Positions 7,059 through 53,621 of a stretch of DNA of 64,000 bases are shown here, piece by piece. The stretch lies in NCBI GenBank assembly GCA_016776605.1, contig JADHTB010000009.1, positions 31,453-95,452 on the forward strand, written 5' to 3'. The notes beneath the pieces are model-generated. The model had not been told where the DNA came from. It saw only the letters and a list, made by a program, of their open reading frames with translations, and searched no databases. The stretch is from Alphaproteobacteria bacterium. GTDB lineage: Bacteria; Pseudomonadota; Alphaproteobacteria; GCA-2731375. Positions within the stretch are counted from its first letter, which is position 1. Each line of letters opens with the position of its first letter. The position numbers and the translations under genes were made by a program.

Positions 7059-7163
7059 CTAGAGCATTTTCATTCTGAAAATGCTCAGATCTTTAGAATT
7101 AGAGCAATTTTTCCAATCACTTAGAATCGCTTCGCGATTCTCATTAATTCGGAATTGCTCTAG
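7059..7163. repeat. Copy 1 of a ~104-bp three-hairpin intergenic repeat (MITE/REP-like) with CTAGAGC termini
   Basis: ctAGAGCATTTTCAttcTGAAAATGCTC...AGAATCGCttcGCGATTCT...AATTGCTCTAG. Same architecture as the copies at 20471, 44549 and 49271, with compensatory base changes in hairpin arms. Overlaps the last 6 codons and stop of panC. Confidence 0.75.
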
Positions 7164-8007
7164 CGGCGACGGAAACGTTGTCTATTAGACGGGTAGCGCC
7201 CAACCAGGCGGCGGCAAATAGGCGGGATGGCCGCTGCAAATTCACGGCTGGAGCCAGGGTTTCTGCGTCACGCAGCTCGAAATAGTCAATTTTAGTGAAA
7301 CCGGATTCCGTGAGCCGTTGCAATGCCGCGGCGGTTTCAGCTTCGGGCTCGCCACGCCCTGTTTCGATGTTTTCCGCTGCCGTGCCGAGGCTGCGGAATA
7401 ACGCCGCTGCCTGTTGGCGTTCCGCCGTACCGAGATAGGCGTTGCGCGAGGAAAGCGCCAAACCGTCCTGCTCCCGCACAGTGGGGGCGCCGATGATGTC
7501 GACGGGAATGTTGAGATCCCGCACCACGCGACGGATCACCAGAAGCTGCTGGTAGTCCTTGTCGCCAAACACCGCCACGTCAGGCAATGCTTGCAGAAGC
7601 AGTTTGCTCACCACCGTGGCCACGCCGTCAAAAAACCCTGGCCGCGACAGACCGCAAAGGCAATCAGTGATCCCGGATACTGTCACATTGGTGGCAAAAT
7701 TCTCCGGATACATTTCTCCCACATCGGGGGCGAACAGCAGATCTACCCCCGCAGCCTCAAGCTTTGTCACATCGTCGGCCTCGCCCCGCGGGTACGTCGC
7801 GAAATCCTCCGATGGGCCAAACTGGGCTGGATTGACAAAAATCGTCGCGACCACCCGGTCACACGTTTCCCGTCCCTGGTGCACTAGCGACAAATGCCCC
7901 GCGTGCAATGCCCCCATTGTCGGGACAAGCGCGATTCTCTGGCCGGCGCGCCGCCACTCATCCACCTGATCGCGAAGGGTGGCCACGGTCCTTACGATGT
8001 CGAGCAT
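7144..8007 (-). CDS. panC: Pantoate--beta-alanine ligase
   Basis: 287 aa. 'PTMGALHAGHLSLV' HIGH-type motif and overall PanC collinearity. Confidence 0.9.
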   Translation of the reverse strand: MLDIVRTVATLRDQVDEWRRAGQRIALVPTMGALHAGHLSLVHQGRETCDRVVATIFVNPAQFGPSEDFATYPRGEADDVTKLEAAGVDLLFAPDVGEMYPENFATNVTVSGITDCLCGLSRPGFFDGVATVVSKLLLQALPDVAVFGDKDYQQLLVIRRVVRDLNIPVDIIGAPTVREQDGLALSSRNAYLGTAERQQAAALFRSLGTAAENIETGRGEPEAETAAALQRLTESGFTKIDYFELRDAETLAPAVNLQRPSRLFAAAWLGATRLIDNVSVAARAIPN

Positions 8008-15751: not shown

Positions 15752-15816
15752 GAACCCATTTACCTAATTTTCACAATAGCTTGCAAGGATTGTGCGATCA
15801 GATTGGAATTAACGCA

Positions 15817-18366
15817 ATGTACATTTCGGAACTATTTTCACGACACGGCCTATCTAGACACGACCTGTTTATGATGCTTGCCGTCGTGCCAGGCCTGTTG
15901 TTTGCCGAACCTGGAATGTTATCGGCCAAACCTGGACCGTTATCGCCGGATGGCCCCTTAACAGCCGAGGAACGAAGCGCCTTTGAAGCCATGCTGCCGG
16001 CTGCGACCAAAGGCATAAAGCTGCCCGCCATACCGTCGCGCAAGGCCATGACCCCACATTTAAGCAATGTGGGCACAGCCCTGGGCATGCCGTTCACCGA
16101 CCGCATGAAGGAGGGCTACGACGCCTTTATGAAAGGCGATACGGACCGTGCCCTGGCCTTGCTGGATGAGGGCATCAAGGATGCCTGGGGCGATCAAATG
16201 AGATTTCGCCTGTCGCTGATCCGGGCGGACTTGCTTGCCAGAACCGACCGTATCGCCGATGCCGAGATATTCATTCTGGACACGGCCCGGCTGGAACAGG
16301 AATTTTGGGACGATACATTTTTGAGCCGTGCCGTCAGGGGCGACATACGGGCCCGCCTGGGGGACCGGTTGGCGGCGGAGGCGGATCTGGCCCGCGTGGC
16401 CTTGGCCCAAAAGGACTGGCAACTGGCCACCGAGTACGATGAGGTACCGAATATCCTCAGTATCCTGATGAATACCGAGGCAAAATACAGGGCCGCCTTG
16501 GGCCTGGCATCCCTGTACATCCGCGACGGCCAATATGCCAAGGGGCTGGCCTGGGCGGTGGAGTTGGAGCAGCATTTCGTCCGCCTGTTTACCCTGGCGG
16601 ACAACGGGGAATACGGCGACATGGTGCCGTTGCTCCCGGAATTTTACATAGCCCGCGGCGAAAATTTGGCCTATCTGGGCGCCGGCACCCTGGCACTGAT
16701 GGACGCACCGGAACGCGCGGCACCCTATTTCGCCGCCGCCGAGGGCTTTTTCAAGGCCATGGGCTATACCCAGGGTCGGGCCGTAACCGCGGCTCTACGG
16801 GCAAGGGCCCTGTATGACACCGGCCGCAATGACGCTTTCGAGGCCGCCGCCGTGCCGGCCATCGCACTGGCCGTCGAAGCGGGCCTGGGCGAGCTGGTCT
16901 GGCGGCTGGAGGCACTACGGGGAGAGCGGCTTTACCTTGCCGGCAAAATTGATCAGGCCGAAGGGGCCCTGCGCCGGGCCCAAACCGCCGCGACCTTGGT
17001 TAGCGGCGCGCTTTCCAGCGATCAATCAAAGCTGCGCTTCGGCGTTGGCAAGGAGAAGCTCACCCAACTACTAGCCGCCATCGATCTGGAGCAGGCTGAA
17101 CACGGCAATCTGTTTCAAGACATGGAACAGGGCCGGGCCCGTGCCTTTATCGATATGCTGGCCAATCAGGCCATCGCGTCTGGCAGCGAAGCCACCTTAA
17201 TGTCCGAAATCAGGCGGCTGGAACGAGACATCCGGCGCCAACGCCTGGCCAATGCCGTGCCACGCGCGGCCGGCCATGGCGGGGTGGCGCGGGAACGCGG
17301 GCTGTTGCGGCAGCGCGGGGCCGCGGTTGCCAAACTGCGCCAGTCCAATTCGGAGCTGGCCGATGCATTGTCCGTGGCGACCATTGGCTTGGCCGAGGTT
17401 CAGGCCCAATTGGGCCCGGGCGAAACACTGGCCTATGCAGTGCCCACGGCGCCCGGCCTCACGCTAAGCTGGCTGCTGGTCGAGAAACAGGCTACGCGGG
17501 TTGTCAAAATGCATGCCACGCAGGCGGATCTGGCCAAACGGTTAGGGGCGTTTGCCGATGCGGTCGCCCAGGGCGCCGTGGGCGCCCAACAAGAGATCGC
17601 GGTGCAGCTGGCCGATCTATTGGGGATCGCGCAATGGCGGGCCCGCAAAGGCGTCTATGTGGTGCCGGTCGGCAATCTTTATTTTGTCCCATGGGGGGCC
17701 TTGGGTACGGATTATTTTGTTACTGTCCTGCCCATGGGCGGCTGGCTGAACCGGCCACCGGCGCCCAGCACCATGAGTGGCCCGGCCACTGTGTTGGGCG
17801 ATCCAAATTATTTTGGCCAACTGGCCCAACTGCCGGGCGCGCGGGTGGAAGCAACGACGATTGCCGGGTTTTACAGCGTCATGCCGTTATTGGGCGATGG
17901 CGCCACCGAGGCGGCCCTGCGCAAGGCTATCGGAACTGGTATCGGGGTATTGCATCTGGCCACCCATGGCAGTTTCGATGCCGATAATCCCCTGAATTCA
18001 GAGATCATATTGTCGGGCCAGGACAAGGTGCGGCGGCTAACGGCGGCACGCCTGTTCGAAGCGCCGCTGCGGGCCGGTCTGGTTGTCTTGTCGGCCTGCG
18101 AGACCGGCGTGGGCCGCGCCGTGGCGGGTGACGATTTTTTAGGCCTGACACGCAGTTTTTATCTAGGCGGCGCCCGCACTGTGCTCAATAGTTTATGGCC
18201 GGTGGAAGACAAGGGCACCCAGGCCTTCATGACCCGGTTTCACGCCTTGGCTCGAAACGGCGACTATGGCGCGGCCTGGCTGGGCGCCCGCGACCAGGTG
18301 AAACAACAAGGTTATGCCCCCTCCGTCTATGGCGCTTTCACCCTGGGCGGGGCTGCCCGGCGCTAG
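15817..18366 (+). CDS. TPR-repeat protein with C-terminal CHAT (caspase-like) domain
   Basis: Long helical TPR-like N-terminal region. C-terminus 'VLHLATHGSFDADNP...GLVVLSACETGVG' gives the CHAT His/Cys dyad. Start uncertain (track ORF begins at 15781; first ATG is 15817). Confidence 0.7.
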   Translation: MYISELFSRHGLSRHDLFMMLAVVPGLLFAEPGMLSAKPGPLSPDGPLTAEERSAFEAMLPAATKGIKLPAIPSRKAMTPHLSNVGTALGMPFTDRMKEGYDAFMKGDTDRALALLDEGIKDAWGDQMRFRLSLIRADLLARTDRIADAEIFILDTARLEQEFWDDTFLSRAVRGDIRARLGDRLAAEADLARVALAQKDWQLATEYDEVPNILSILMNTEAKYRAALGLASLYIRDGQYAKGLAWAVELEQHFVRLFTLADNGEYGDMVPLLPEFYIARGENLAYLGAGTLALMDAPERAAPYFAAAEGFFKAMGYTQGRAVTAALRARALYDTGRNDAFEAAAVPAIALAVEAGLGELVWRLEALRGERLYLAGKIDQAEGALRRAQTAATLVSGALSSDQSKLRFGVGKEKLTQLLAAIDLEQAEHGNLFQDMEQGRARAFIDMLANQAIASGSEATLMSEIRRLERDIRRQRLANAVPRAAGHGGVARERGLLRQRGAAVAKLRQSNSELADALSVATIGLAEVQAQLGPGETLAYAVPTAPGLTLSWLLVEKQATRVVKMHATQADLAKRLGAFADAVAQGAVGAQQEIAVQLADLLGIAQWRARKGVYVVPVGNLYFVPWGALGTDYFVTVLPMGGWLNRPPAPSTMSGPATVLGDPNYFGQLAQLPGARVEATTIAGFYSVMPLLGDGATEAALRKAIGTGIGVLHLATHGSFDADNPLNSEIILSGQDKVRRLTAARLFEAPLRAGLVVLSACETGVGRAVAGDDFLGLTRSFYLGGARTVLNSLWPVEDKGTQAFMTRFHALARNGDYGAAWLGARDQVKQQGYAPSVYGAFTLGGAARR

Positions 18367-19520: not shown

Positions 19521-20462
19521 ATGGCACATCTCATCGAGGCCCGGCCGGATAACATACATTGGGGCTATTTCGAGGCGGCCCGCCCCGCCGTGGCGGAAAT
19601 CGCCTCTGGCGAGCGGGTCACGTTTCATACGGTTTCGGGCGCGGCCAATGTAACGCCCGCCGACGGCGGCCCCTTTACCGTTGCCCCCGAACAGCGCGCG
19701 ATCCACGCTCAGGTGACGCGGCAAATGCTGCCCGGACATATCCTGACCGGCCCGGTCGCGGTGCGCGGCGCCCAACCGGGCATGGTGCTGGAAATCCGCA
19801 TCATCGATATCGAATTGGGCGCTGATTGGGGTTGGAATGTGATCCGGCCCGGCGCCGGCGCCCTGCCCGACGATTTCACTGAAAACCAGCTGTTTCATAT
19901 TGGTTTGGACGCAAAGCGCCAGATCGGCACCCTGCCCTGGGGTCAGGAGGTGCCACTGGCACCGTTTTTCGGTGTGATGGGTGTTGCCCCCCCGCCCGAG
20001 CGCGGCACCTTAACTTCGATCATACCGGGCGATTTTGGCGGCAATCTGGACCTGAAGGAACTGCTCCCCGGCAGTATCCTGTACCTGCCCGTATTTGTCG
20101 AAGGCGCGCTGTTTTCCGTCGGCGATGGTCACGCGGCACAGGGCAATGGCGAGGTTTGCGTGACGGCAATTGAAACGGGCCTGAACGGTACCTTCGAGTT
20201 GATCGTCCGCAAAGACCTCCATTTCACCATGCCACGGGCGGAAACCCCAACCCATCACATCACCCTAGGCATCGACCCGGATTTGGACGAAGCCGCCCGC
20301 CAGGCCCTGCGCGAGATGATTACCTTGATCTGCGAGCGGACGCCGCTATCCCGCGCGGAAGCCTATGCGCTGTGTTCCATCTGTTGCGATCTGAACGTGA
20401 CGCAATTGGTCAACCAGCACAAAGGCGTGCATGCCATGCTGTCCAAGGAGCGGTTGAAATAA
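19521..20462 (+). CDS. Acetamidase/formamidase (FmdA/AmdA) family protein
   Basis: 313 aa, collinear with FmdA_AmdA family members. Starts 4 nt after the AKR stop. Confidence 0.7.
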   Translation: MAHLIEARPDNIHWGYFEAARPAVAEIASGERVTFHTVSGAANVTPADGGPFTVAPEQRAIHAQVTRQMLPGHILTGPVAVRGAQPGMVLEIRIIDIELGADWGWNVIRPGAGALPDDFTENQLFHIGLDAKRQIGTLPWGQEVPLAPFFGVMGVAPPPERGTLTSIIPGDFGGNLDLKELLPGSILYLPVFVEGALFSVGDGHAAQGNGEVCVTAIETGLNGTFELIVRKDLHFTMPRAETPTHHITLGIDPDLDEAARQALREMITLICERTPLSRAEAYALCSICCDLNVTQLVNQHKGVHAMLSKERLK

Positions 20463-20470
20463 ACGCAGCC

Positions 20471-20572
20471 AGAGCGCATTCGAAGAAAATGCGCTCTGAA
20501 TCTTAAAAGTAGAGCAATTGAACCAATCACTTAAGTCGCGAAAGCGACTTCAGTTAATTGAAAATTGCGCTA
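20471..20572. repeat. Copy 2 of the ~104-bp three-hairpin intergenic repeat
   Basis: AGAGCGCATTcgaagaaaATGCGCTCT...AAGTCGCgaaaGCGACTT...TTAATTGAAAATTGCGCTA. The terminal CTA is the TAG stop (minus strand) of the aldolase gene. Confidence 0.8.
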
Positions 20573-21343
20573 CCCCTTCAAGGCCTTGATGCCGGCGGTC
20601 AAGCCGTCTCCCAACAGGCCCATATCGTGGTTATAGGAGATCATGCGGTAGCCACGGTTCAGGAGATCCTGGCCCCATTCCAGGGTCGGCGCCATGCCGC
20701 CCGCCGCTTTGCCGACTTTGGCGGCGGCTTCGACGATTTTGTCGATGCCGCGCTGCAAATCCGGGTGATCGAACTGGCCGGGAATACCCAGGGACAAGGA
20801 CAGGTCCGCATGGCCCAGATGGGCCGCGTCGATGCCGTCGACGGCCATGATTTCGTCGATGTTGTCCAGGCCCGCCTTGGTTTCGATCAGGGCCAGGGTA
20901 AACGTACGCGCCATGGCGGCGGCGGCCTTATCAGCCATCTCGCCGCCCGTGTAATCATCATGGGCGCCGCCAAACACGGCGCCGCGCACACCGCTGGGCG
21001 GATAGCGCGTCCAACTAACCAACTCGCGCGCTTCCTCGGCACTGCCCACCATCTGATACAGCAGGCCAAAGGCGCCCACATCAAGCAGACGGGCGGTAAA
21101 ATTATAAGCCTTGCCGGGTGGGCGGACCAGGGGAACCAGGCCAACGGCGGCACAGAGCGCGAATTGCGTCTTCATGTCTTCGATGGTGAAGCCGCTGTGT
21201 TCCAGGTCATAGAGCGCGAAGTCGGCGCCGGAATTGGCCAGAATGCGCGGCAGGCCAGGGCTCAAAAATTCGAAAATCATGGTGCCGTAAACAGTTTCGC
21301 CGGCAGCCAGCTTGGTCTTCACGGGATTGGATCGCATGGGCAT
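20570..21343 (-). CDS. HpcH/HpaI-family aldolase (2-keto-3-deoxy-acid aldolase)
   Basis: 257 aa. 'KLAAGETVYGTMIFEF', 'DFALYDLEHSGFTIEDMK' and 'IETKAGLDNIDEI' match the HpcH/HpaI aldolase fold. Confidence 0.75.
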   Translation of the reverse strand: MPMRSNPVKTKLAAGETVYGTMIFEFLSPGLPRILANSGADFALYDLEHSGFTIEDMKTQFALCAAVGLVPLVRPPGKAYNFTARLLDVGAFGLLYQMVGSAEEARELVSWTRYPPSGVRGAVFGGAHDDYTGGEMADKAAAAMARTFTLALIETKAGLDNIDEIMAVDGIDAAHLGHADLSLSLGIPGQFDHPDLQRGIDKIVEAAAKVGKAAGGMAPTLEWGQDLLNRGYRMISYNHDMGLLGDGLTAGIKALKG

Positions 21344-29679: not shown

Positions 29680-29754
29680 ACCTGCTGCCGGTAAATGGCG
29701 ATTTAAAAATTCCATTCTTGATTGGTAAGGCTCTCACTCAAATGGAGTAGTTCC

Positions 29755-30468
29755 ATGCTGAAAGTGCTTCAAGGTCTTGTTCCATCAACAAAGAAGGCTG
29801 GCTTGGCGGTCGGTATGTCTGTGTTGATTTTCCTGATTGTGTCACTGGGCGTATTGCTAAGTGATGTCACACGGGATGACGTGACAACGCTTCACAACGG
29901 ACTTGACGGCACAAAATTTGCGAATGCGGAAGTGGGCTCGTTCTTTGAAGTTTCGACGGATCGGGTACTTGGGCCTCTGTGTGAAGAGGTGTTTTCTAAC
30001 AATGATCAGAGGCTACGGATTCAATCTAAAATCGTGACTGTAATCAACAAACTTGGAGAGACGCTTCCGCTGCTTACCGCATTGACGAACGCGGTGTCTG
30101 ATCCGCCGGATAATAAGAATAATGGACCCAAAATTTCCAATATCCTGAGTTTGCCGGTAATTGAAAATTCCGTGACGTCGGCGACGCTGTGGGAGTATTC
30201 TCGGAATATAATGAATAACAAAGGCGGTAAATGCAGAAAGTATATTGATACGCGAACGAAATTTAGAGAAGTTAGAATTTGCCCTGTCTCTCGTGTCTGG
30301 AAGAACAAGGGTGGCGAAACTGAAGCGGTCTTCTTTGATTCATATGCGATTAATGGGTGCCCCGGCAATGATCCATCCTGCACCGATAAATGCCCGCAAT
30401 TTGCCACTGAACAGTTCTGGACGACAGTAAAAATACAATTTGATCTGCTCGAATCCCGACACAACTAG
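29755..30468 (+). CDS. Hypothetical membrane-anchored protein (N-terminal TM helix), no recognisable family
   Basis: ATG 29755 preceded by GGAG. 'GLAVGMSVLIFLIVSLGVLL' TM anchor. AT-rich codon usage unlike the neighbouring genes. Track ORF 29722..30468. Confidence 0.45.
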   Translation: MLKVLQGLVPSTKKAGLAVGMSVLIFLIVSLGVLLSDVTRDDVTTLHNGLDGTKFANAEVGSFFEVSTDRVLGPLCEEVFSNNDQRLRIQSKIVTVINKLGETLPLLTALTNAVSDPPDNKNNGPKISNILSLPVIENSVTSATLWEYSRNIMNNKGGKCRKYIDTRTKFREVRICPVSRVWKNKGGETEAVFFDSYAINGCPGNDPSCTDKCPQFATEQFWTTVKIQFDLLESRHN

Positions 30469-39275: not shown

Positions 39276-40112
39276 ATGGTGAAAGATATCAAACACATTC
39301 ACAGCTATTACTCGCCGAATGATTTGTATAACAAAATCATTGCGGGGCTTAACAAACTTGGCAAGGATTTGTCGCAGGTCACACTGGATGATCTTCAGCC
39401 CGTGGATGAATTTCATATCCGTGGCGATACCGCGACCAAAGAACTGATTAAACTTTCCGGTTTTACGCCAGACATGCATATCCTGGATGTGGGCTGCGGC
39501 ATCGGCGGTTCCACACGTCGTTTGTCACATGAAACAGGTTGTCGCGTAACCGGTATAGATTTGAGCGATGAATACATTGATACCGCGCAACGATTGACAC
39601 AATTGCTCAACATGCAGGAACGGGTAACGTTCCATGCGGCCAGTGCGCTGGCACTGCCGTTTGACGACAATGCCTTTGACGGCGTCTGGTCGCTGCAGAT
39701 GAACATGAATGTCGATGATAAGCTGTCCTGGCTAAAGGAAACCTATCGTGTTCTCAAACCCGGTGGGCGGGCGGTTTTGTATGAAGTATGCGGCAATAAA
39801 AATACGCCGCTGTATTTTCCGGTGCCATGGGCGCAGGACAGTTCCATGAGTTTTCTGGTGCCGCCGGAATCCTTCCGCGATGTCATAACATCCGCCGGTT
39901 TTGATATCACTGTCTGGAATGACAAGACCGGCCTTGCACGGCAGGCCTTTGCACAAGTGAAGGCGCCTGTGGGCGAGCTGAACCTGCCGGTACTGGGCGT
40001 CTATCTGCTGGTGGGTAACGATATCAGCACCAAGGCCTATAATCTGCATCGTAATCTTGATGAAGAACGCGTCAGCCTGATCGAGACCGTAGCGGTAAAA
40101 CCTGATTTTTAA
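39276..40112 (+). CDS. Class-I SAM-dependent methyltransferase
   Basis: 'ILDVGCGIGGSTRRL' motif I, plus post-I acidic and motif II regions. The gene body is markedly more AT-rich than its flanks. Confidence 0.75.
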   Translation: MVKDIKHIHSYYSPNDLYNKIIAGLNKLGKDLSQVTLDDLQPVDEFHIRGDTATKELIKLSGFTPDMHILDVGCGIGGSTRRLSHETGCRVTGIDLSDEYIDTAQRLTQLLNMQERVTFHAASALALPFDDNAFDGVWSLQMNMNVDDKLSWLKETYRVLKPGGRAVLYEVCGNKNTPLYFPVPWAQDSSMSFLVPPESFRDVITSAGFDITVWNDKTGLARQAFAQVKAPVGELNLPVLGVYLLVGNDISTKAYNLHRNLDEERVSLIETVAVKPDF

Positions 40113-40322
40113 AGCCGCTAGAGCGGTTCGTACCGCGTAATTGACCGGTCGCGATGTCTTGTCGTCCGGGTTCAAGTTTGCGACGATGCACGCACGAATG
40201 CGACGAGGTCGATTGGCGTGTCGCGCGAAGCAGCGTTAATTTGCGCGATACCGTTACCATGCGCACCGTGGCCACGAAATACACCACGCACCAAATACAC
40301 CACGCACTGGGGAGATCCGACT

Positions 40323-41072
40323 ATGCCGATATACGAAAACGGTCCCGTGAAGATTCATTACGAGGAGGCCGGCTCCGGCTTTCCGCTGCTGGTCATTCCC
40401 GGCGGCGGTCTAAATGCGACCATAGCCGGGCTCGCTAACCATGCCTTCAATCCGCTGGAGGAATTCAGCGACACCTATCGCGTCGTCGCGCTGGACATAC
40501 GCAACGCCAATGGCGGCAAGACGGAGGGCCCGCTCGAAATCGAACGGACCTGGGACGGCTTCGTCGACGACCAGCTCGGCCTGATGGACCATCTCGGCAT
40601 CGACCGGTTCATGGTGATGGGCTTCTGCATCGGCGGTCCGATGATCTGGAACCTGCTGAAACAAGCAGGCGACCGGGTCGTCGCCGCCACGCTGGTGCAC
40701 CCGAGCGGGTTTACCTCCAGCCATCCCGACATCTACTATAACAACAACATCAACGGCTGGGCGCCCGCGTTCATTAAGCGGCGGCCCGAGATCACCATGG
40801 AGATGGCCTCGGAATTCCTCAACAACATGTACACAAAGCGGGCGGATTTCGTGTTCACCGTCGACCGCGACTTCGTTCGGAATTGCCAGACACCGGTGCT
40901 GGTCCTGCCGGACGACATACCGGCGCACCCCTATGCGACGGCGATGGAGACGGCGCTGCTGGCGCCGAACGCGCAGGTCAGCCTCTATCCCTGGAAAGAG
41001 AACGACCGAAAGATCGCGCTCGCCTTGCGCCACATCCGCGGCTTCATGGCGACGAACGCCCCCGCAGTCTAG
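40323..41072 (+). CDS. Alpha/beta-fold hydrolase
   Basis: ATG 40323 after GGGGAGAT. 'LLVIPGGG', 'VMGFCIGG' nucleophile elbow (Cys/Ser-type). Confidence 0.65.
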   Translation: MPIYENGPVKIHYEEAGSGFPLLVIPGGGLNATIAGLANHAFNPLEEFSDTYRVVALDIRNANGGKTEGPLEIERTWDGFVDDQLGLMDHLGIDRFMVMGFCIGGPMIWNLLKQAGDRVVAATLVHPSGFTSSHPDIYYNNNINGWAPAFIKRRPEITMEMASEFLNNMYTKRADFVFTVDRDFVRNCQTPVLVLPDDIPAHPYATAMETALLAPNAQVSLYPWKENDRKIALALRHIRGFMATNAPAV

Positions 41073-41866
41073 AGCAATTCGTCCAGAAACGCCCGCAACG
41101 TCGCGCTGCATTCGCCGGCGTGGGAGAACGGCAGTCCATGGCGGGCATGGGGGAAAATCCGCAGCCGCGCATTGGGCAGCAGCGCATGCAGATCCGCCAT
41201 GATGGGCACCGGGATGAACGGAGAGGAATCCGGGTGCATCAGCAGAGTCGGCAGCACAACGTCAGGTAATTGTTGGCTCTGGTCCGTACCCACGAGTGTT
41301 TTCAACAGAGCCAGTACGGTGGCCGGGTCGGCGCTGGCCTGTTGCGCGCGGTACCAGGCCGATACCGGTTCCGCCAGGGCGCCGTCGAAAAACCGATGGG
41401 TCATCATGCGGTCGGACCAGGCGGCCATGCCCTCGCCCTCGATCAACTCGTGCCAGAAATCCAGGTTCTGGATTGTGCCGCCCATATGGGCGCCGTTGCT
41501 GACGGTCAGGCTCAACAGGCGGCCGGGATGTTCGATCGCGGTTTGCAGGGCCACGGTGCCGCCGACGGATTCTCCCACCAAATGAAACCTGGCGCAATCA
41601 ATCCTGTCCGCCAGGGCGATGACATCGCTCACCATGGCCTGGATGGTGATAGCGCCATCGCCCGGCTGAGACTGCCCATGGCCGGGCAGATCAAACGCGG
41701 CCAGGCGATAACGGTCCAGCAAGGCGGGCATCCAGCCCTGCCAACAGCGCCAGTTGGCGCCGACGCCGTGATGGAAAATGATCGTCTCCGGCGCCTCGAC
41801 CCACGGCGCCGTCTGATCGATAATTTCGTAGTGCAGGCGATGTGCGCCGGTATTCAGGTCTGGCAT
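41069..41866 (-). CDS. Alpha/beta-fold hydrolase
   Basis: 'IIFHHGVGAN', 'LVGESVGG' GxSxG elbow. Its stop overlaps the stop of the convergent hydrolase gene by 4 nt at a CTAG. Confidence 0.7.
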   Translation of the reverse strand: MPDLNTGAHRLHYEIIDQTAPWVEAPETIIFHHGVGANWRCWQGWMPALLDRYRLAAFDLPGHGQSQPGDGAITIQAMVSDVIALADRIDCARFHLVGESVGGTVALQTAIEHPGRLLSLTVSNGAHMGGTIQNLDFWHELIEGEGMAAWSDRMMTHRFFDGALAEPVSAWYRAQQASADPATVLALLKTLVGTDQSQQLPDVVLPTLLMHPDSSPFIPVPIMADLHALLPNARLRIFPHARHGLPFSHAGECSATLRAFLDELL

Positions 41867-43845: not shown

Positions 43846-44526
43846 ATGTCCGACGAGCATCTCGCCTATCTCGCGCCAGGTCCCACCGTGGAAAGCGGGC
43901 ATCCCGACATCGTGGCCTTTGCCACGGCCGCCGCCGGGGATGCCGCGACACCGAAGCAGACGGCGATCGCGCTGTATTATGCGGTGCGCGACGATATCCG
44001 CTACAACCCCTATATCTCGGCGATCGAGGTCGAGGCCTTCCGTGCGACCAAAACATTGGCGGATAAGGAAGGCTATTGCGTGGCCAAGGCGATACTGTTG
44101 GCCGCCGCCTGCCGGGCCCTTGGCGTGCCCGCCCGCCTTGGTTTCGCCGACGTGCGCAACCACCTATCAACGGAAAAGATGCGCCAGCGCATGAAAACAG
44201 ATCTGTTCTATTGGCATGGCTATACCTCCATCTATCTAGACGGCAAATGGGTGAAAGCAACGCCTGCCTTCAACATCGGGCTGTGCGAAAAATTCGGCCT
44301 GAAGCCGCTTGAGTTCGACGGCGAGGAAGACTCGATTTATCATACGATCGATGTGTCCGGCAGCCGGCACATGGAATACCTGAATTACCGCGGCGAGTTC
44401 GCCGAACCGCCGCTGGCCGAAATTTACGCAACCTTTATGCGCGAGTATCCCCATTGGCGCGACCGAAGCGCCGCGTCCATCGGCGATTTCGAGGCGGAAG
44501 TAGAAGCGGAAACCAGCACCGCCTGA
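43846..44526 (+). CDS. Transglutaminase-like (papain-fold Cys/His/Asp) family protein
   Basis: 'EGYCVAKAILLAAACR' places Cys in the transglutaminase-core context. 226 aa. Confidence 0.55.
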   Translation: MSDEHLAYLAPGPTVESGHPDIVAFATAAAGDAATPKQTAIALYYAVRDDIRYNPYISAIEVEAFRATKTLADKEGYCVAKAILLAAACRALGVPARLGFADVRNHLSTEKMRQRMKTDLFYWHGYTSIYLDGKWVKATPAFNIGLCEKFGLKPLEFDGEEDSIYHTIDVSGSRHMEYLNYRGEFAEPPLAEIYATFMREYPHWRDRSAASIGDFEAEVEAETSTA

Positions 44527-44548: not shown

Positions 44549-44656
44549 TCTAGAGCGCATTCGAAGAAAATGCGCTCAGACTCTTAAAAATAGGACAATT
44601 GAACCAATCACTTAAGTCGCGATAGCGACTTCAAATAATTGAAAATTTCTCTAACT
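44549..44656. repeat. Copy 3 of the ~104-bp three-hairpin intergenic repeat
   Basis: ctCTAGAGCGCATTcgaagaaaATGCGCTC...AAGTCGCgataGCGACTT...TAATTGAAAATTTCTCTAA. The right end is degenerate. The terminal CTA is the TAG stop of the RidA gene on the minus strand. Confidence 0.75.
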
Positions 44657-45043
44657 AAATACGGCGACGAAATCGCATTTTACCTGGGACGGGCCGGCTT
44701 CGGTTAGGGATTGGGTATGGCGGGCCGGACGGGAATTCTCGTCCGGGAACATTTTTTCCCATTCTTCGTTCAGCGCGCCGCGCCCGGTGGCCGGATCCCT
44801 GATCCAGAAGGTGATCTTGAGAATATCGTCCGGCGAGCCGCCCGCCGCTTCCACCGCGCTGCGCACATGGCTGAAGATATTGACGATCTGCTGGTCCAAT
44901 TCGTCGGGCATCTTATTGCTGGCCGGATCGCGGCCGGCGATCACGCTGGACATCATGATGTTGCCGATCCGGCTGGCGCCCGGAATCGGGTTGGCGTGGC
45001 TGAAACCGGGGAATTCGATGCTTTGACGCTTAGACATGCGCAA
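44651..45043 (-). CDS. RidA/YjgF (Rid family) reactive-intermediate deaminase
   Basis: 130 aa. '...ITFWIRDP...' and the C-terminal Rid signature. Confidence 0.7.
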   Translation of the reverse strand: MRMSKRQSIEFPGFSHANPIPGASRIGNIMMSSVIAGRDPASNKMPDELDQQIVNIFSHVRSAVEAAGGSPDDILKITFWIRDPATGRGALNEEWEKMFPDENSRPARHTQSLTEAGPSQVKCDFVAVFS

Positions 45044-49250: not shown

Positions 49251-49270
49251 GTCCCGCGCACCGCTCCTTC

Positions 49271-49373
49271 AGAGCGCATTCGAAGAAAATGCGCTCAGAC
49301 TCTTAAAGATAGAGCAATTGAACCAATTACTTAAGTCGCGAAAGCGACTCTAGTTAATTGAAAATTGCTCTAG
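49271..49373. repeat. Copy 4 of the ~104-bp three-hairpin intergenic repeat
   Basis: AGAGCGCATTcgaagaaaATGCGCTC...AAGTCGCgaaaGCGACTC...TTAATTGAAAATTGCTCTAG. The terminal CTA (49370-49372) is the murA TAG stop on the minus strand. Confidence 0.8.
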
Positions 49374-50680
49374 TCGACCAGCCGCACGATATCCGCGCCA
49401 CAGTCCGAAAGTTTTTCCTCCAACCGCTCGTACCCACGGTCCAGATGATAGACCCGGCTGATCACGGTCTCGCCCGCCGCCGCCAAACCGGCCAGCACCA
49501 GGGACACCGAGGCGCGCAAATCCGTCGCCATCACCGGCGCCCCATGCAGGCCGCCGCCAACCGATCCCGCCGGTCCGCCACGGCCACGAACCATGGCGTT
49601 GGCGCCCTTGACCGTAATATCGGCCCCCATGCGCATCAGCTCCGGCACATGCTGAAAACGATTTTCGAAGATCGTTTCGGTGATCATGGCGGCACCATTC
49701 GCCGTCGCCAACAGGGCCATCAACTGGGCCTGCAGATCGGTGGGGAAACCGGGATAGGGCGCTGTCGTGACATTAATACCGCTCAGACCGTCGCTGCCGG
49801 CGCTGACCAGAACGCCGCAATCGGTTGGCTGCATGCGCACATTGGCACGGGCCAGGGCGGCCGCCACGGCCTCCATCAACTCCCACCGGGCGCCCAGCAA
49901 TTCGACCTCGCCGCCGGTTATGGCCGCGGCCATGGCATAGGTTGCCGCCTCGATCCGGTCGGGCAGTACGGCATAGTCCGCGCCCGACAATTTTTCGACG
50001 CCCTGGATCCGCAGGGTATCGCTGCCGATCCCCTCGATCCGGGCCCCCATGCTGTTCAGGCAATTGGCCAGATCGCCGATTTCGGGTTCCCTGGCGGCGT
50101 TCTCCAACACCACTTCGCCCTTGGCCAGGGTGGCCGCCATCAGCAGATTTTCCGTTGCGCCGACGGATACCTGGGGAAATACCACCACACCGCCCTGCAA
50201 CCCCTGGGGCGCCCGGGCTAGGATATAGCCATCATCCAGTTCAATTTCCGCGCCCAGGGCTTCCAGGCCGCCGATATGCATATCCACGGGCCGGGTGCCA
50301 ATGGCGCAGCCGCCCGGCAGGGAAACCCGCGCCTGGCCGCAACGGGCCAGCAAGGGGCCCAGCACCAGGACCGAGGCACGCATCTTGCGCACAATGTCAT
50401 AGGGCGCCTCGGTCGAGCTGATATCGTGGGTCCGCAGCGCCAGGACATGCCCCATGTGGCCGCCGCCGGGATGTTCCCCGGCCATGGACAATTCGGTGCC
50501 GTGCTGGGCCAACAGATGGGTCATGGTCGCGATATCCGCCAGATGCGGCAGATTGCGCAGGACCAAGGTCTCCTCGGTCAGCAAACTGGCCGCCATCAAG
50601 GGCAGGGCCGCGTTCTTGGCCCCGCTGATGGCAATCTTGCCGTGCAACGGCCGGCCACCGCGTATGCGTATCCTATCCAT
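49370..50680 (-). CDS. murA: UDP-N-acetylglucosamine 1-carboxyvinyltransferase
   Basis: 436 aa. '[27 protein letters not shown]' and the catalytic Cys loop. Confidence 0.9.
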
Positions 50681-51239: not shown

Positions 51240-51314
<75 letters not shown>

Positions 51315-51436
51315 TTTCCCCGCCGGCAGCGGTCTTATTCGATGGCGCCCCAGGGGCAGATGCCCTGAGCGATAGCGCCAAACGCGGCGGCGGCGCTTTG
51401 AGAAACCATGTTTTGGCAATACAGGCTTTGCACGCC

Positions 51437-51787
51437 TTATCCCGGCTCTCCCGTCAGGCGCGACGGCGCCGGAATATTGCACCGGGCGGCAGCCTGGCCC
51501 GGGCGGGCGATGGGGGTCAGGGGCAGGACCAGCCAGACGCCTTCGCGTGTCCGTGCCGTTACCGCCTGCAATACGGCGATGGGATTGTGCCTGTGCCGGG
51601 ATGGGGTTTTCAGCGATAGGCAGGTCAGGGTCAGAATTTCCCCCGGATGCATGAAGTTCCGCATGCGGTCATCGGGGAAATAGCCCGGCGCCAAAACCTC
51701 GGCCGGGCGGTCCGTGGTGCTGTAGGCCCAGTGCGAGGCCCGGCTGTTACCGGCCACGCACATCAGGTTGGAGGCATCATAGGGCAA
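51437..51787 (-). CDS. Hypothetical protein (116 aa) whose promoter carries the same operator-like repeats as the adjacent repressor gene
   Basis: Strong GC3 bias. No recognisable family. Confidence 0.35.
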   Translation of the reverse strand: MPYDASNLMCVAGNSRASHWAYSTTDRPAEVLAPGYFPDDRMRNFMHPGEILTLTCLSLKTPSRHRHNPIAVLQAVTARTREGVWLVLPLTPIARPGQAAARCNIPAPSRLTGEPG

Positions 51788-51931
51788 ATTCGGATCCTTC
51801 CGCCGATCACAGCCCGTATATATACCTTATCGTATAAATAAATACAAGAAATATTGGAACTAGCGTATATTTAGCGGCCCGCCCCGGCCACCCTCGCGAC
51901 CACATTCACGGCCACCTTCACGACTTTGTGG

Positions 51932-52588
51932 CTATCGGTAGACCCTGTGTGCGCCGACGATCAGATGCATGGCGGCAACCTCTTCGGGGACAAACCGCAC
52001 CTCCTTGGGGGGATTATACTGCTCCAATATAATGGCCCGCTGGGTTCGCCGCCGCAGCAATTTGATAAAGGCCCGGTCATCGGTGGTTTGCACGACAACG
52101 TAATCGTTCGGTTGCACGGGGATGTTCGGGTCGACCTCGATTATTTCACGCGGTTCATAGCGCGGCCGCATTGAGGAATTATGCACGATCAGGGCATAGG
52201 CGTTGGTCACCCCGACCAAATTCGCCGGCCGGCCCGCAAAGCCTGTAATTGTGCCATTATCCAGGAATGTACCGTCTTCCCCCGCCTCGGCATGGCCGAG
52301 GATTGGTAAATCCTGTACCCGGCCGGGCGGACCGGGGATTTCCGTTGCGATCAGATGATCGGACACGCCCGGCGCCGGCCAGGGCGCCTCGCCCGCCGAT
52401 GCCGCAGCGGCGCCCGATTGTCCACTTAGGGCGGCGATGGCGCGGGATTGCTCCCGGTCCGGCCCCTGCTTGCCCGCCTCCCAACGGGAGACGGTCGCCT
52501 GGGTCGTCCCCAGGGACGCCGCGAACTGCGCCTGTGTCTGCCGCCGTTCCCGACGCAGCCCGCGCACGGTAACTGCCCAATCAACCAT
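51932..52588 (-). CDS. Autocleavable S24-peptidase repressor (LexA/CI-like) with N-terminal XRE-type HTH
   Basis: HTH 'QAQFAASLGTTQATVSRWEAGK'. Ala-Gly cleavage site 'HAEAGEDG'. Ser nucleophile in 'NSSMRP' and Lys in 'AFIKLL' about 40 residues later. AT-rich repeat-bearing flanks on both sides. Confidence 0.7.
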   Translation of the reverse strand: MVDWAVTVRGLRRERRQTQAQFAASLGTTQATVSRWEAGKQGPDREQSRAIAALSGQSGAAAASAGEAPWPAPGVSDHLIATEIPGPPGRVQDLPILGHAEAGEDGTFLDNGTITGFAGRPANLVGVTNAYALIVHNSSMRPRYEPREIIEVDPNIPVQPNDYVVVQTTDDRAFIKLLRRRTQRAIILEQYNPPKEVRFVPEEVAAMHLIVGAHRVYR

Positions 52589-52673
52589 AATATATAAGAT
52601 AAAGCATTTTTATACGGATGCAAATACGAAATAGAATAATTTTCTTGTATTTTATACGTTAGCGTATATTATA

Positions 52674-53000
52674 TTGCCCATGACAGACCCCACCACCCCT
52701 ATAGATGATCCCTTAGACGATCCTCTAGATGAGCGCCCGGGCGCCGGCAAATCGGCGCGCCCGGCGGCCCAACAGATCGCCGGCTGCCGCTGGATCGACG
52801 GCGATGTACAGACCCCGGCGTGGCGCTATTGCCAGGCACCGCGATTGCCCGGCCGGTCTTATTGTGCAGCACACCATGTGCGCAGCATCAATCCCGATGC
52901 TGACCGGCAATTCACGGCGGAACTGGCGGAATGCGAGCTTTACTTAGGCGATCTGCCGCCCCCGGAAGACGCGTTGGACGACGAATTGGATGGGGCATAG
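52674..53000 (+). CDS. GcrA-like protein containing only the C-terminal (sigma-70-interaction) domain
   Basis: 'CRWIDGDVQTPAWRYCQAPRLPGRSYCAAHHVRSI' matches the conserved GcrA C-terminal Cys-W-P-I-G-D...F-C...Y-C-x-x-H block. The N-terminus is Pro/Asp-rich with no GcrA DNA-binding domain. Confidence 0.5.
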   Translation: MPMTDPTTPIDDPLDDPLDERPGAGKSARPAAQQIAGCRWIDGDVQTPAWRYCQAPRLPGRSYCAAHHVRSINPDADRQFTAELAECELYLGDLPPPEDALDDELDGA

Positions 53001-53621
53001 ATGATGGGCGACGGGGAACAGCCCAAATCCCCCGGCGGCAAGGGGACAAATCGCCGCCGCGCGAGCCGGCGGCAGGCGCAACGGGGCCGTCTGCAACTAA
53101 GTGGCAATGGCGGGCCGACCAATTTGCGCCTGCAGCATCACCCCTTGGGGGAGGACAGCCCCGCCCTGGTGCGCGCCGATATTGCTGCCGAGGACGGACG
53201 CGGGCCCGTTACCTATGCCCTGCGCGCGCCCGATACGATCGACGCGCTGGTGAACAAGGGCCGCATCGACCACCGGGCGGCGGCGGGCGCCCGTAAGTTC
53301 GAGGGCATTTTTCAGCGCGCCAGCCTGAACGGTCTGGTCAACCGGGATATCCGCGTAACACCGGGTGCCTTTAACCCTGGGGGTGGCGAGCCGCACCGCA
53401 TTCTGGCCGCCCGCGACGAGGTCTGGAGCGCCATACGCGCCCTGGGCGGCATCGGCACGCCCGGCGCCAATGTGGTCTGGGATGTCCTGGGCCTGGGCAT
53501 GACCATCAAGGCCCATGCGGAGCGTTGCCAGTTTGGCAACGGCCGCTCTCTCAACCCCATGACCGCCACCGGCATTCTGGTGCAATCCTGTTTCACCCTG
53601 GCTGCGTATTATGGCACGTAA
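53001..53621 (+). CDS. Hypothetical protein (206 aa), translationally coupled to the GcrA-like gene (TAG-ATGATG)
   Basis: Starts at the nucleotide after the upstream stop. Good GC3 bias. No family recognised. Confidence 0.4.
   Translation: MMGDGEQPKSPGGKGTNRRRASRRQAQRGRLQLSGNGGPTNLRLQHHPLGEDSPALVRADIAAEDGRGPVTYALRAPDTIDALVNKGRIDHRAAAGARKFEGIFQRASLNGLVNRDIRVTPGAFNPGGGEPHRILAARDEVWSAIRALGGIGTPGANVVWDVLGLGMTIKAHAERCQFGNGRSLNPMTATGILVQSCFTLAAYYGT

Follow-up and report, generated by a model that had tools for sequence, protein, structure and literature searches.

The window, the whole 64-kb stretch of alphaproteobacterial DNA analysed here, carries four copies of a non-coding repeat without coding capacity, each exactly 105 bp long from terminal tetranucleotide to terminal tetranucleotide. 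All of them read on the plus strand, in the single orientation first noted and near the positions originally given, and they are listed here on the minus strand, which is found below to be the constrained one. The window holds both subfamilies of the repeat, B with copy 1 and A with copies 2–4.

7059–7163, minus strand: copy 1, subfamily B, 105 bp from CTAG to CTAG; hairpin 1 at 7062–7086, linker at 7087–7099, long hairpin 2 at 7100–7162
7144–8007, minus strand: panC open reading frame, extending 17 nt inside copy 1, with its stop codon at 7144–7146
end at 20462: FmdA/AmdA-family gene, convergent toward copy 2
20469–20573, minus strand: copy 2, subfamily A, 105 bp, the copy of the original prediction; hairpin 1 at 20471–20497, linker with GAATC at 20498–20509, hairpin 2 at 20510–20572
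20570–21343, minus strand: HpcH/HpaI aldolase gene, whose TAG stop is the terminal CTA of copy 2 (20570–20572)
41069–41080, no strand assigned: CTAGAGCAATTC, a 12-nt exact match to the element terminus, possibly a solo end or a preferred-target look-alike
end at 44526: transglutaminase-like gene, convergent toward copy 3
44550–44654, minus strand: copy 3, subfamily A, 105 bp; hairpin 1 at 44553–44577, linker with GACTC at 44578–44590, hairpin 2 at 44591–44653
44651–45043, minus strand: L-PSP/RidA-like gene, whose TAG stop is the terminal CTA of copy 3 (44651–44653)
49269–49373, minus strand: copy 4, subfamily A, 105 bp; hairpin 1 at 49272–49296, linker with GACTC at 49297–49309, hairpin 2 at 49310–49372
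49370–50680, minus strand: murA, whose TAG stop is the terminal CTA of copy 4 (49370–49372)

An nhmmer profile built from the four copies recovers each of them at E = 1e-25 to 1e-31 on the plus strand of the 64 kb, and the original claim of four near-identical copies in one orientation is thereby confirmed by direct reading and by profile search alike. No fifth full copy was found by nhmmer in the whole 64-kb window; the other matches are weak self-matches on the reverse strand, produced because the right half of the element is palindromic. A 27-nt core motif occurs three times in the window, against 0.00 expected from shuffles. Copies 2–4 share 90–92% mutual identity, and copy 1 is about 71–73% identical to them. 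The gene contexts first described also stand: copies 2 and 3 are situated between convergent genes, and copy 4 separates the murA stop from the gene that follows, filling the murA–DUF2948 spacer inside the murA–DUF2948–hisG–hisD gene string. The CTAG at 41069 provides the stop codons of both convergent alpha/beta-hydrolase genes (40218–41072 on the plus strand and 41069–41866 on the minus strand).

Two hairpins, their covariation and the constrained strand

Each copy contains two hairpins, a short one of 9–11 bp and, after a linker of 12–13 nt, an interrupted one of about 63 nt. The short hairpin has a base of GAGC...GCTC and an interior that is variable and covarying, and the linker is conserved with a GACTCTTAAGAAT-like sequence. 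The long hairpin rises from a near-invariant basal stem, TAGAGCAATT/AATTGCTCTA, above which lie a middle stem and then an apical stem that is variable, covarying and sometimes expanded; AAGTCGC-GAAA-GCGACTT forms the apex of this hairpin. The three hairpins of the original prediction are thus reduced to two, with the 'AT-rich spacer' starting at TAGAGCAATT and the 'tail' ending in AATTGCTCTA being the opposite arms of the single long hairpin. In copy 3, the basal stem of hairpin 2 is partly decayed. The folds are far more stable than those of their own shuffles (z = -5.6 to -9.3), and DNA energy parameters give the same two-hairpin architecture. Some copies have insertions of 11–14 nt at the apex of the long hairpin, which lengthen the stem and account for the element length of about 104–119 bp outside the window.

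Covariation was assessed with a hand-written structure laid over a plain MAFFT alignment of 36 copies, an alignment that was thus not fitted to the structure. In this set, 80.9% of the cells are paired, against 29–43% when the partners are slid by one to three columns, and two-sided changes occur at 18 pairs, including eight of the ten pairs of hairpin 1. None of 500 shuffles reached the observed covariation score. At least five versions of the stem exist (GCGCATT, GCATTTTCA, GCATTTCCG, GCATGTTTC and GCACATT), all of them self-complementary, and a version aligned by covariance model gives the same picture. The compensatory changes first noticed in copy 1 are therefore real and extend across the 36 copies. 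Variation in the basal stem of the long hairpin is slight among these copies, consistent with sequence-specific recognition at this stem. RNAalifold on the MAFFT alignment recovers five pairs, a low yield that arises because subfamilies A and B are one column off register in hairpin 2; subfamily B stays out of register even after re-alignment with the covariance model, and the counts for helices 3–5 are underestimates.

The mismatches that remain in the stems are distributed unequally between the two strands. In the orientation first used, 37 A·C mismatches are found against 9 G·U, counts that are partly dependent since the copies are related to one another; distinct column events split 16 to 9. 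The complementary strand turns the A·C mismatches into G·U wobbles and is the more stable one in 33 of the 36 copies, by a mean of 5.6 kcal/mol. This difference is gone when G·U pairs are forbidden, and it amounts to only 1.3 kcal/mol under DNA parameters. Mutation bias was ruled out as the source of the asymmetry, the transition bias of unpaired conserved columns (18 vs 45) running opposite to that of paired columns (43 vs 39; Fisher p = 0.004). The wobble pairs show that the constrained strand is the window minus strand, and the orientation of the original prediction is accordingly reversed: the wobble-bearing strand is its reverse complement. Such a dependence on G·U pairs, together with the small effect under DNA parameters, suggests that RNA is a more natural substrate than single-stranded DNA. 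The wobble asymmetry suggests that a transcript is under selection, although it is only weakly larger where this strand should be transcribed (one-sided p = 0.06).

Termini, stop codons and insertion sites

The inverted termini of the element are CTAGAGC...GCTCTAG. Among 35 copies, sequence conservation is bounded exactly by the terminal tetranucleotides and the flanks are random; base counts are C27 T23 A24 G34 at the left end and C34 T34 A28 G25 at the right end, with CTAG in most copies and GTAG or TTAG in a few. The most informative feature, on which the original prediction is silent, is the coincidence of the element ends with TAG stops, that is, with CTAG target sites. In 37 copies examined for this purpose, the terminal TAG is itself the stop codon of a long ORF at 11 'sense-5′' ends and 8 other ends, and 3 further ORFs stop 17 nt inside the element. 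In L030, L075 and L028, convergent genes take their stop codons from the two ends of one element.

The window has only about one sixth of the CTAG sites expected (38 vs approximately 227; GATC, 424 sites), 9 of the 33 CTAGs outside the elements are stop codons of called genes, and TAG is the commonest stop codon of this genome. Consequently, the targets that are both available and tolerated are mostly stop codons. Around the copies, with gene calls in the loci made by a simple GC3-based caller, 11 contexts are convergent, 14 co-directional and 6 divergent; the co-directional ones comprise 10 sense and 4 antisense copies, a weak sense bias (p = 0.18). Relative to the upstream gene, 22 copies are co-oriented and 12 anti-oriented. 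The orientation of the element is also weakly correlated with local GC skew (23 to 9, Wilcoxon p = 0.009), a signal that is confounded with gene orientation.

Outside the window, a loose degenerate pattern, CAATTNNNCCAATYACTTA, was scanned over contigs with one genome per species and matched at least 108 loci, about 30 of which are full-length members by nhmmer (E down to 1e-25) and by covariance model. The matches listed include over 30 additional copies, spread over about 13 MAGs of marine alphaproteobacteria. Every host is an uncultured marine alphaproteobacterium, in many cases labelled Rhodospirillaceae by the submitter, and the samples came from Saanich Inlet, the Caspian Sea, the Antarctic, the deep ocean and oxygen-minimum zones. 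An IMG/VR contig carries a further two copies. Subfamilies A and B are found together within single genomes. The repeat is therefore not confined to the copies first seen, and with its strong covariation the objection raised at the outset, that only these copies exist and that their arms do not covary, fails. No copies at orthologous sites were found between the MAGs sampled, and the flanks are unrelated, with flanking genes of unrelated function. Local duplication, considered as a source of the copies, is ruled out by these unrelated flanks.

The site of copy 4 is empty in three related lineages, L109/L110, L111/L112 and L115, relatives that are only 74–78% identical at the DNA level in the flanks. 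The murA–DUF2948 spacers of relatives measure 17–45 bp and the murA stop is TAG, TAA or TGA; the junction reads GAATAG/GAAGG in L109 and has TAA in L115 and TGA in L111, and the window reads GACTAG-(103 bp)-GAAGG, with 103 additional bases right after the murA TAG. No element was found within up to 10 kb of flank in relatives with 76–86% identical HisD. With CTAG on both ends, nearly identical strings would result whether TA, CTAG or nothing was duplicated. The TA-duplication model requires a deletion of 1–2 nt at the far junction of copy 4, and this junction fits a simple insertion after TAG without duplication or indel. In L078, two head-to-tail copies have a terminal tetranucleotide in common, as expected from insertion into a CTAG regenerated at an element end. 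For copy 3, no empty site was obtained from L109, in which synteny ends past the transglutaminase-like gene.

In other assemblies of the same population, contigs often break off after 30–75 nt of the element, as a multi-copy repeat would be expected to cause. No strain polymorphism was seen among contigs with identical flanking proteins, all of which carry the element or break inside it. Separately, L114 departs from the window inside the L-PSP gene, away from the element, and this divergence is probably a chimera or a rearrangement; L159/L163 may represent a chimeric join.

Probable mobility, rival explanations and known repeat families

The original description of a dispersed, non-autonomous MITE/REP/ERIC-like repeat agrees with the CTAGAGC...GCTCTAG termini and with the real covariation. 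The element is probably a 105-bp non-autonomous mobile repeat family, MITE-like with a REP/ERIC-like structure, that targets CTAG/TA; its mobility is inferred from its distribution. In this model, the target would be the rare CTAG, and the duplication would be either TA, in which case the element proper would run from G to C, or the whole tetranucleotide. Insertion at a stop codon would restore TAG and leave the gene product unchanged, and the element would come to lie exactly at a gene's 3′ end, in a gap between convergent genes or between cistrons. The invariant termini and the basal stem would likely be the recognition sites for a transposase supplied in trans. Such an enzyme may be a DDE transposase of the IS630 or IS5/IS427 type, with a preference for TA/CTAG targets, and an autonomous partner would carry CTAGAGCAATT termini. 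The variable stems are probably kept complementary by selection on the folding of one strand, the complement of the orientation first used. The folded species would most likely be RNA, as a 3′ UTR or an intercistronic part of the mRNA of the upstream gene, where it may act as a stable stem-loop, a barrier to 3′ exonucleases or a processing site, and not as a terminator. The mRNA stabiliser of the original prediction may hold as well. A further and less likely reading is that the element is more than selfish DNA, namely a mobile RNA module selected in the sense direction, which on landing at TAG stops would give the upstream gene a stable 3′ stem-loop with the stop in its base.

Pfam matched no transposase, RAYT or integrase in the 60 window ORFs scanned out of 63 from the gene caller (the other three being short), nor between the paired copies of L065 and L073. 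Pairs of termini at long range that might mark a full-length insertion sequence gave chance matches only in the loci examined. Rfam at the gathering threshold detects only a tRNA in the window, and at a permissive E-value its best matches on the elements reach 12–15 bits with E above 1. Searches with blastn returned no match in 72,556 PLSDB plasmids, including rhizobial megaplasmids, even at E = 1, and none in 5,426 complete E. coli genomes. The exact motifs occur in the literature searched only as chance primer matches, and a promoter scan found nothing in the elements.

The strongest competing explanation is a REPIN/REP-like element that an HUH transposase of the RAYT or IS200/IS605 type mobilises as single-stranded DNA. 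The hairpins would then be the recognition structures on one DNA strand, with (C)TAG at their feet like the GTAG of REPs, and no target would be duplicated. Strand-specific folding and stem covariation are in keeping with this origin, as are the TAGAGC at the foot of each hairpin arm, the copy 4 junction, the single orientation of all four window copies and the weak correlation of orientation with GC skew. However, the asymmetry of folding falls to 1.3 kcal/mol with DNA parameters, the GC-skew signal is confounded with gene orientation, and no Y1 transposase is present in the window ORFs scanned or between paired copies. Moreover, the palindromic CTAG at both ends, as a terminal inverted repeat held in common by tandem copies, is what a DDE element that duplicates TA/CTAG would leave. 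An HUH-driven origin is rather unlikely.

Less probable still is a host regulatory RNA motif, a 3′-UTR or intercistronic stem-loop kept for the benefit of the flanking gene, with any mobility being ancient or irrelevant. The wobble asymmetry in private, copy-specific mismatches does point to selection after insertion, many copies begin exactly at a stop codon and point the same way as the gene upstream (the 22 to 12 given above), and some copies are situated within conserved operons. Nevertheless, the orthologous murA–DUF2948 spacer is empty in all three related lineages, no sampled copy is kept at orthologous sites between MAGs, the functions of the flanking genes are unrelated, about one third of the copies face the 'wrong' way or lie in divergent promoter regions, and no Rfam family was matched.

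The bidirectional terminator proposed originally is not upheld and has very little probability left. Strong GC-containing hairpins are indeed located between convergent genes at copies 2 and 3, but neither hairpin is followed by a T/U run on either strand, and a terminator scan of copies 2 and 4 was empty. Furthermore, copy 4 lies between murA and DUF2948–hisG–hisD, all on one strand, and the copies of L073 lie after infB, before rbfA and after truB in the infB–rbfA–truB operon, so that termination between infB and rbfA would cut off essential downstream genes. Least probable of all is a DNA-level protein-binding or methylation module resembling the CcrM-associated repeats of Caulobacter with functional GANTC sites: these are enriched in the 36 copies (1.44 per copy vs 0.4 expected from composition, at two recurrent positions) despite a strong depletion in the window (56 sites, 6 of them within the four elements), but at each position only about half of the copies (18–19 of 36) have the site, 8 of 36 have no site at all, and DNA binding leaves the stem covariation and the G·U asymmetry unexplained.

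Under the preferred reading of a MITE-like mobile repeat, the closest comparison is with bacterial TA/CTAG MITEs, elements under about 300 bp that derive from IS630-Tc1-mariner or IS5/IS427-group elements; the Correia/NEMIS elements of Neisseria are an example that duplicates TA. Both are small non-coding multi-copy repeats (105 bp here) with terminal inverted repeats and ends on TA within CTAG, and in both the sites are empty in relatives, tandem copies have a common target and the transposase is not nearby. In contrast to these MITEs, nearly the whole of the present repeat is taken up by two hairpins, the covariation reaches far past the terminal repeats and the wobble pairs are strand-specific. 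We know of no parent insertion sequence for this 105-bp repeat.

In size and architecture, the repeat also resembles Bru-RS1/2, RIME1/2, CIR, ERIC and REPINs. REP sequences are short imperfect palindromes with a conserved 5′ GTAG, arranged in clusters of inverted pairs, and they stabilise upstream mRNA. The present element has in common with REP, BIME and REPIN the extragenic hairpins, often between convergent genes, the compensatory upkeep of these hairpins and a tetranucleotide at their foot; it differs in having CTAG in place of GTAG, a fixed 105-bp unit with inverted termini in place of variable REP clusters, no RAYT seen in the window and no match in the E. coli genomes searched. ERIC/IRU of enterobacteria and CIR, which are transcribed with neighbouring genes, are likewise intergenic imperfect palindromes of about 100–130 bp. 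In the case of ERIC, no sequence match was found in the E. coli genomes. CIR of Caulobacter, compared here by description, contains GANTC sites as many copies of the present repeat do, whereas in this repeat GANTC is only half-conserved.

RIME1 and RIME2 of Sinorhizobium/Rhizobium, reportedly described by Osteras et al. in 1995, are said to be about 108–109 bp long with two large palindromes, and they are, to our knowledge, reported from Rhizobiaceae only. Their size, their two palindromes and their intergenic and intra-operon positions (chvI–chvG for RIME; murA–hisD and infB–rbfA here) are similar to those of the present repeat, whereas the latter has no match in the 72,556 plasmids with their rhizobial megaplasmids, a comparison confined to plasmid-borne sequences. 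Bru-RS1 and Bru-RS2 of Brucella are palindromic repeats of 103 and 105 bp, which IS711 enters at YTAR with duplication of TA (PMC3163539, PMC2266754). Compared by description only, they have in common with the present repeat an alphaproteobacterial host, a near-equal length, a palindromic structure, an intergenic position and a site of the YTAR/CTAG type. They differ in the host clade, and their CTAG-type site is the entry point of another insertion sequence, undocumented as a boundary of the repeat.

The repeat is no new class of system; its stop-codon ends and the identification of the selected strand by wobble pairs make it a good specimen and no surprise. For an uncultured clade of marine Alphaproteobacteria, it provides a clean and well-delimited case of a structured mini-transposon. 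With ends that double as the stop codons of neighbouring genes, in some cases of both convergent ones, its choice of target would allow a harmless spread in a compact genome. The stems covary and the wobble asymmetry pinpoints the selected strand, a combination seldom demonstrated in repeats of this kind that speaks for constraint at the RNA level. In addition, assemblies break predictably at the element, and a model of it helps to join contigs and to avoid chimeric joins. If the repeat does act as a mobile RNA module, mRNA 3′-end stability, processing or cistron coupling would be altered across many unrelated genes, and living with the element would be tied to the clade's unusual preference for TAG stops and to its CTAG depletion.

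GANTC sites in the window and the elements

The CcrM methylation motif, GANTC, is strongly depleted in the window, with 56 sites against 131-254 for most NN.NN palindromes of the same composition; CT.AG is as rare (52 sites). Within the elements GANTC is enriched, since 6 of the 56 window sites fall inside the four copies, and the mean over the 36 aligned copies is 1.44 sites per copy. Examples inside the elements are as follows.

20498-20502, GANTC
44579-44583, GANTC
49298-49302, GANTC

Other contigs of note

In one contig, recovered as both L159 and L163 (JACKQG010038439.1, the same as GCA_014382515.1 JACNJO010000172.1; region 1960-2090), the sequence matches the window without difference over copy 4 and the DUF2948-hisG-hisD side. 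Across the element, a MarR gene and an RND-adaptor gene stand in place of murA, and the ORF of the RND adaptor stops on the TAG of the element. Either the assembly joined unrelated sequences at the repeat, giving a chimera, or two copies have genuinely recombined. A second contig, L114, is 99.8% identical to the window and then diverges abruptly within the L-PSP/RidA-like gene (L114 3100-3289 vs window 44655-44822). The break lies approximately 167 nt from copy 3 and not at the element boundary, and L114 is either a chimera or a strain-level rearrangement. A contig classed as viral, L167 (IMGVR_UViG_3300033064_003691), carries two copies (45-158 and 263-375) in inverted orientation, separated by 105 bp. 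Both are located near the contig end, and the DNA there may be either host flank or phage.

Other genes of the window

Several further genes of the window are as follows.

15781-18366, large gene for an 861-aa CHAT-domain (caspase-like protease) protein
29722-30468, gene of low third-position GC (0.49), without Pfam match
39276-40112, gene of low third-position GC (0.56), class I methyltransferase
51240-51311, tRNA gene
51932-52588, minus strand, CI/LexA-like repressor gene (HTH and Peptidase_S24), after the tRNA gene

Beyond the tRNA gene, the repressor gene is accompanied by several small ORFs without Pfam match, and a Pfam scan of 60 of the 63 called window ORFs revealed no integrase. The whole of 51240-53621 may form the edge of a prophage or integrated element adjoining the tRNA. 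Third-position GC is approximately 0.75 elsewhere in the window, and the two low-GC genes may be recent acquisitions. The CHAT-domain gene is surrounded by ordinary metabolic genes.

CTAG at gene ends and stop-codon usage

Twelve nucleotides elsewhere in the window exactly match the element terminus.

41069-41080, CTAGAGCAATTC

Two convergent alpha/beta-hydrolase genes share the CTAG of this stretch in their stop codons, and ...GCTCTAG also closes several other minus-strand genes (14845, 33213 and 40118). Such sequences could represent solo ends or footprints, could reflect a target preference that extends beyond CTAG, or could have arisen by chance.

Stop codons were surveyed over the whole window, the compared loci L109, L111, L113, L115 and L116, and the family-bearing loci L002-L102, on genes called by a simple GC3-based caller. 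Among the approximately 61-63 heuristically called window genes, TAG closes 29-32, TAA 23-24 and TGA only 8. Close relatives, by the same kind of calls, use TAG 23, TGA 11 and TAA 10 times, and in GC-rich hisD loci further removed from the window TGA predominates, as is usual (116/53/40). The stop-codon usage of the window is unusual among alphaproteobacteria of 61% GC, and its source could lie in the release-factor biology of the clade.
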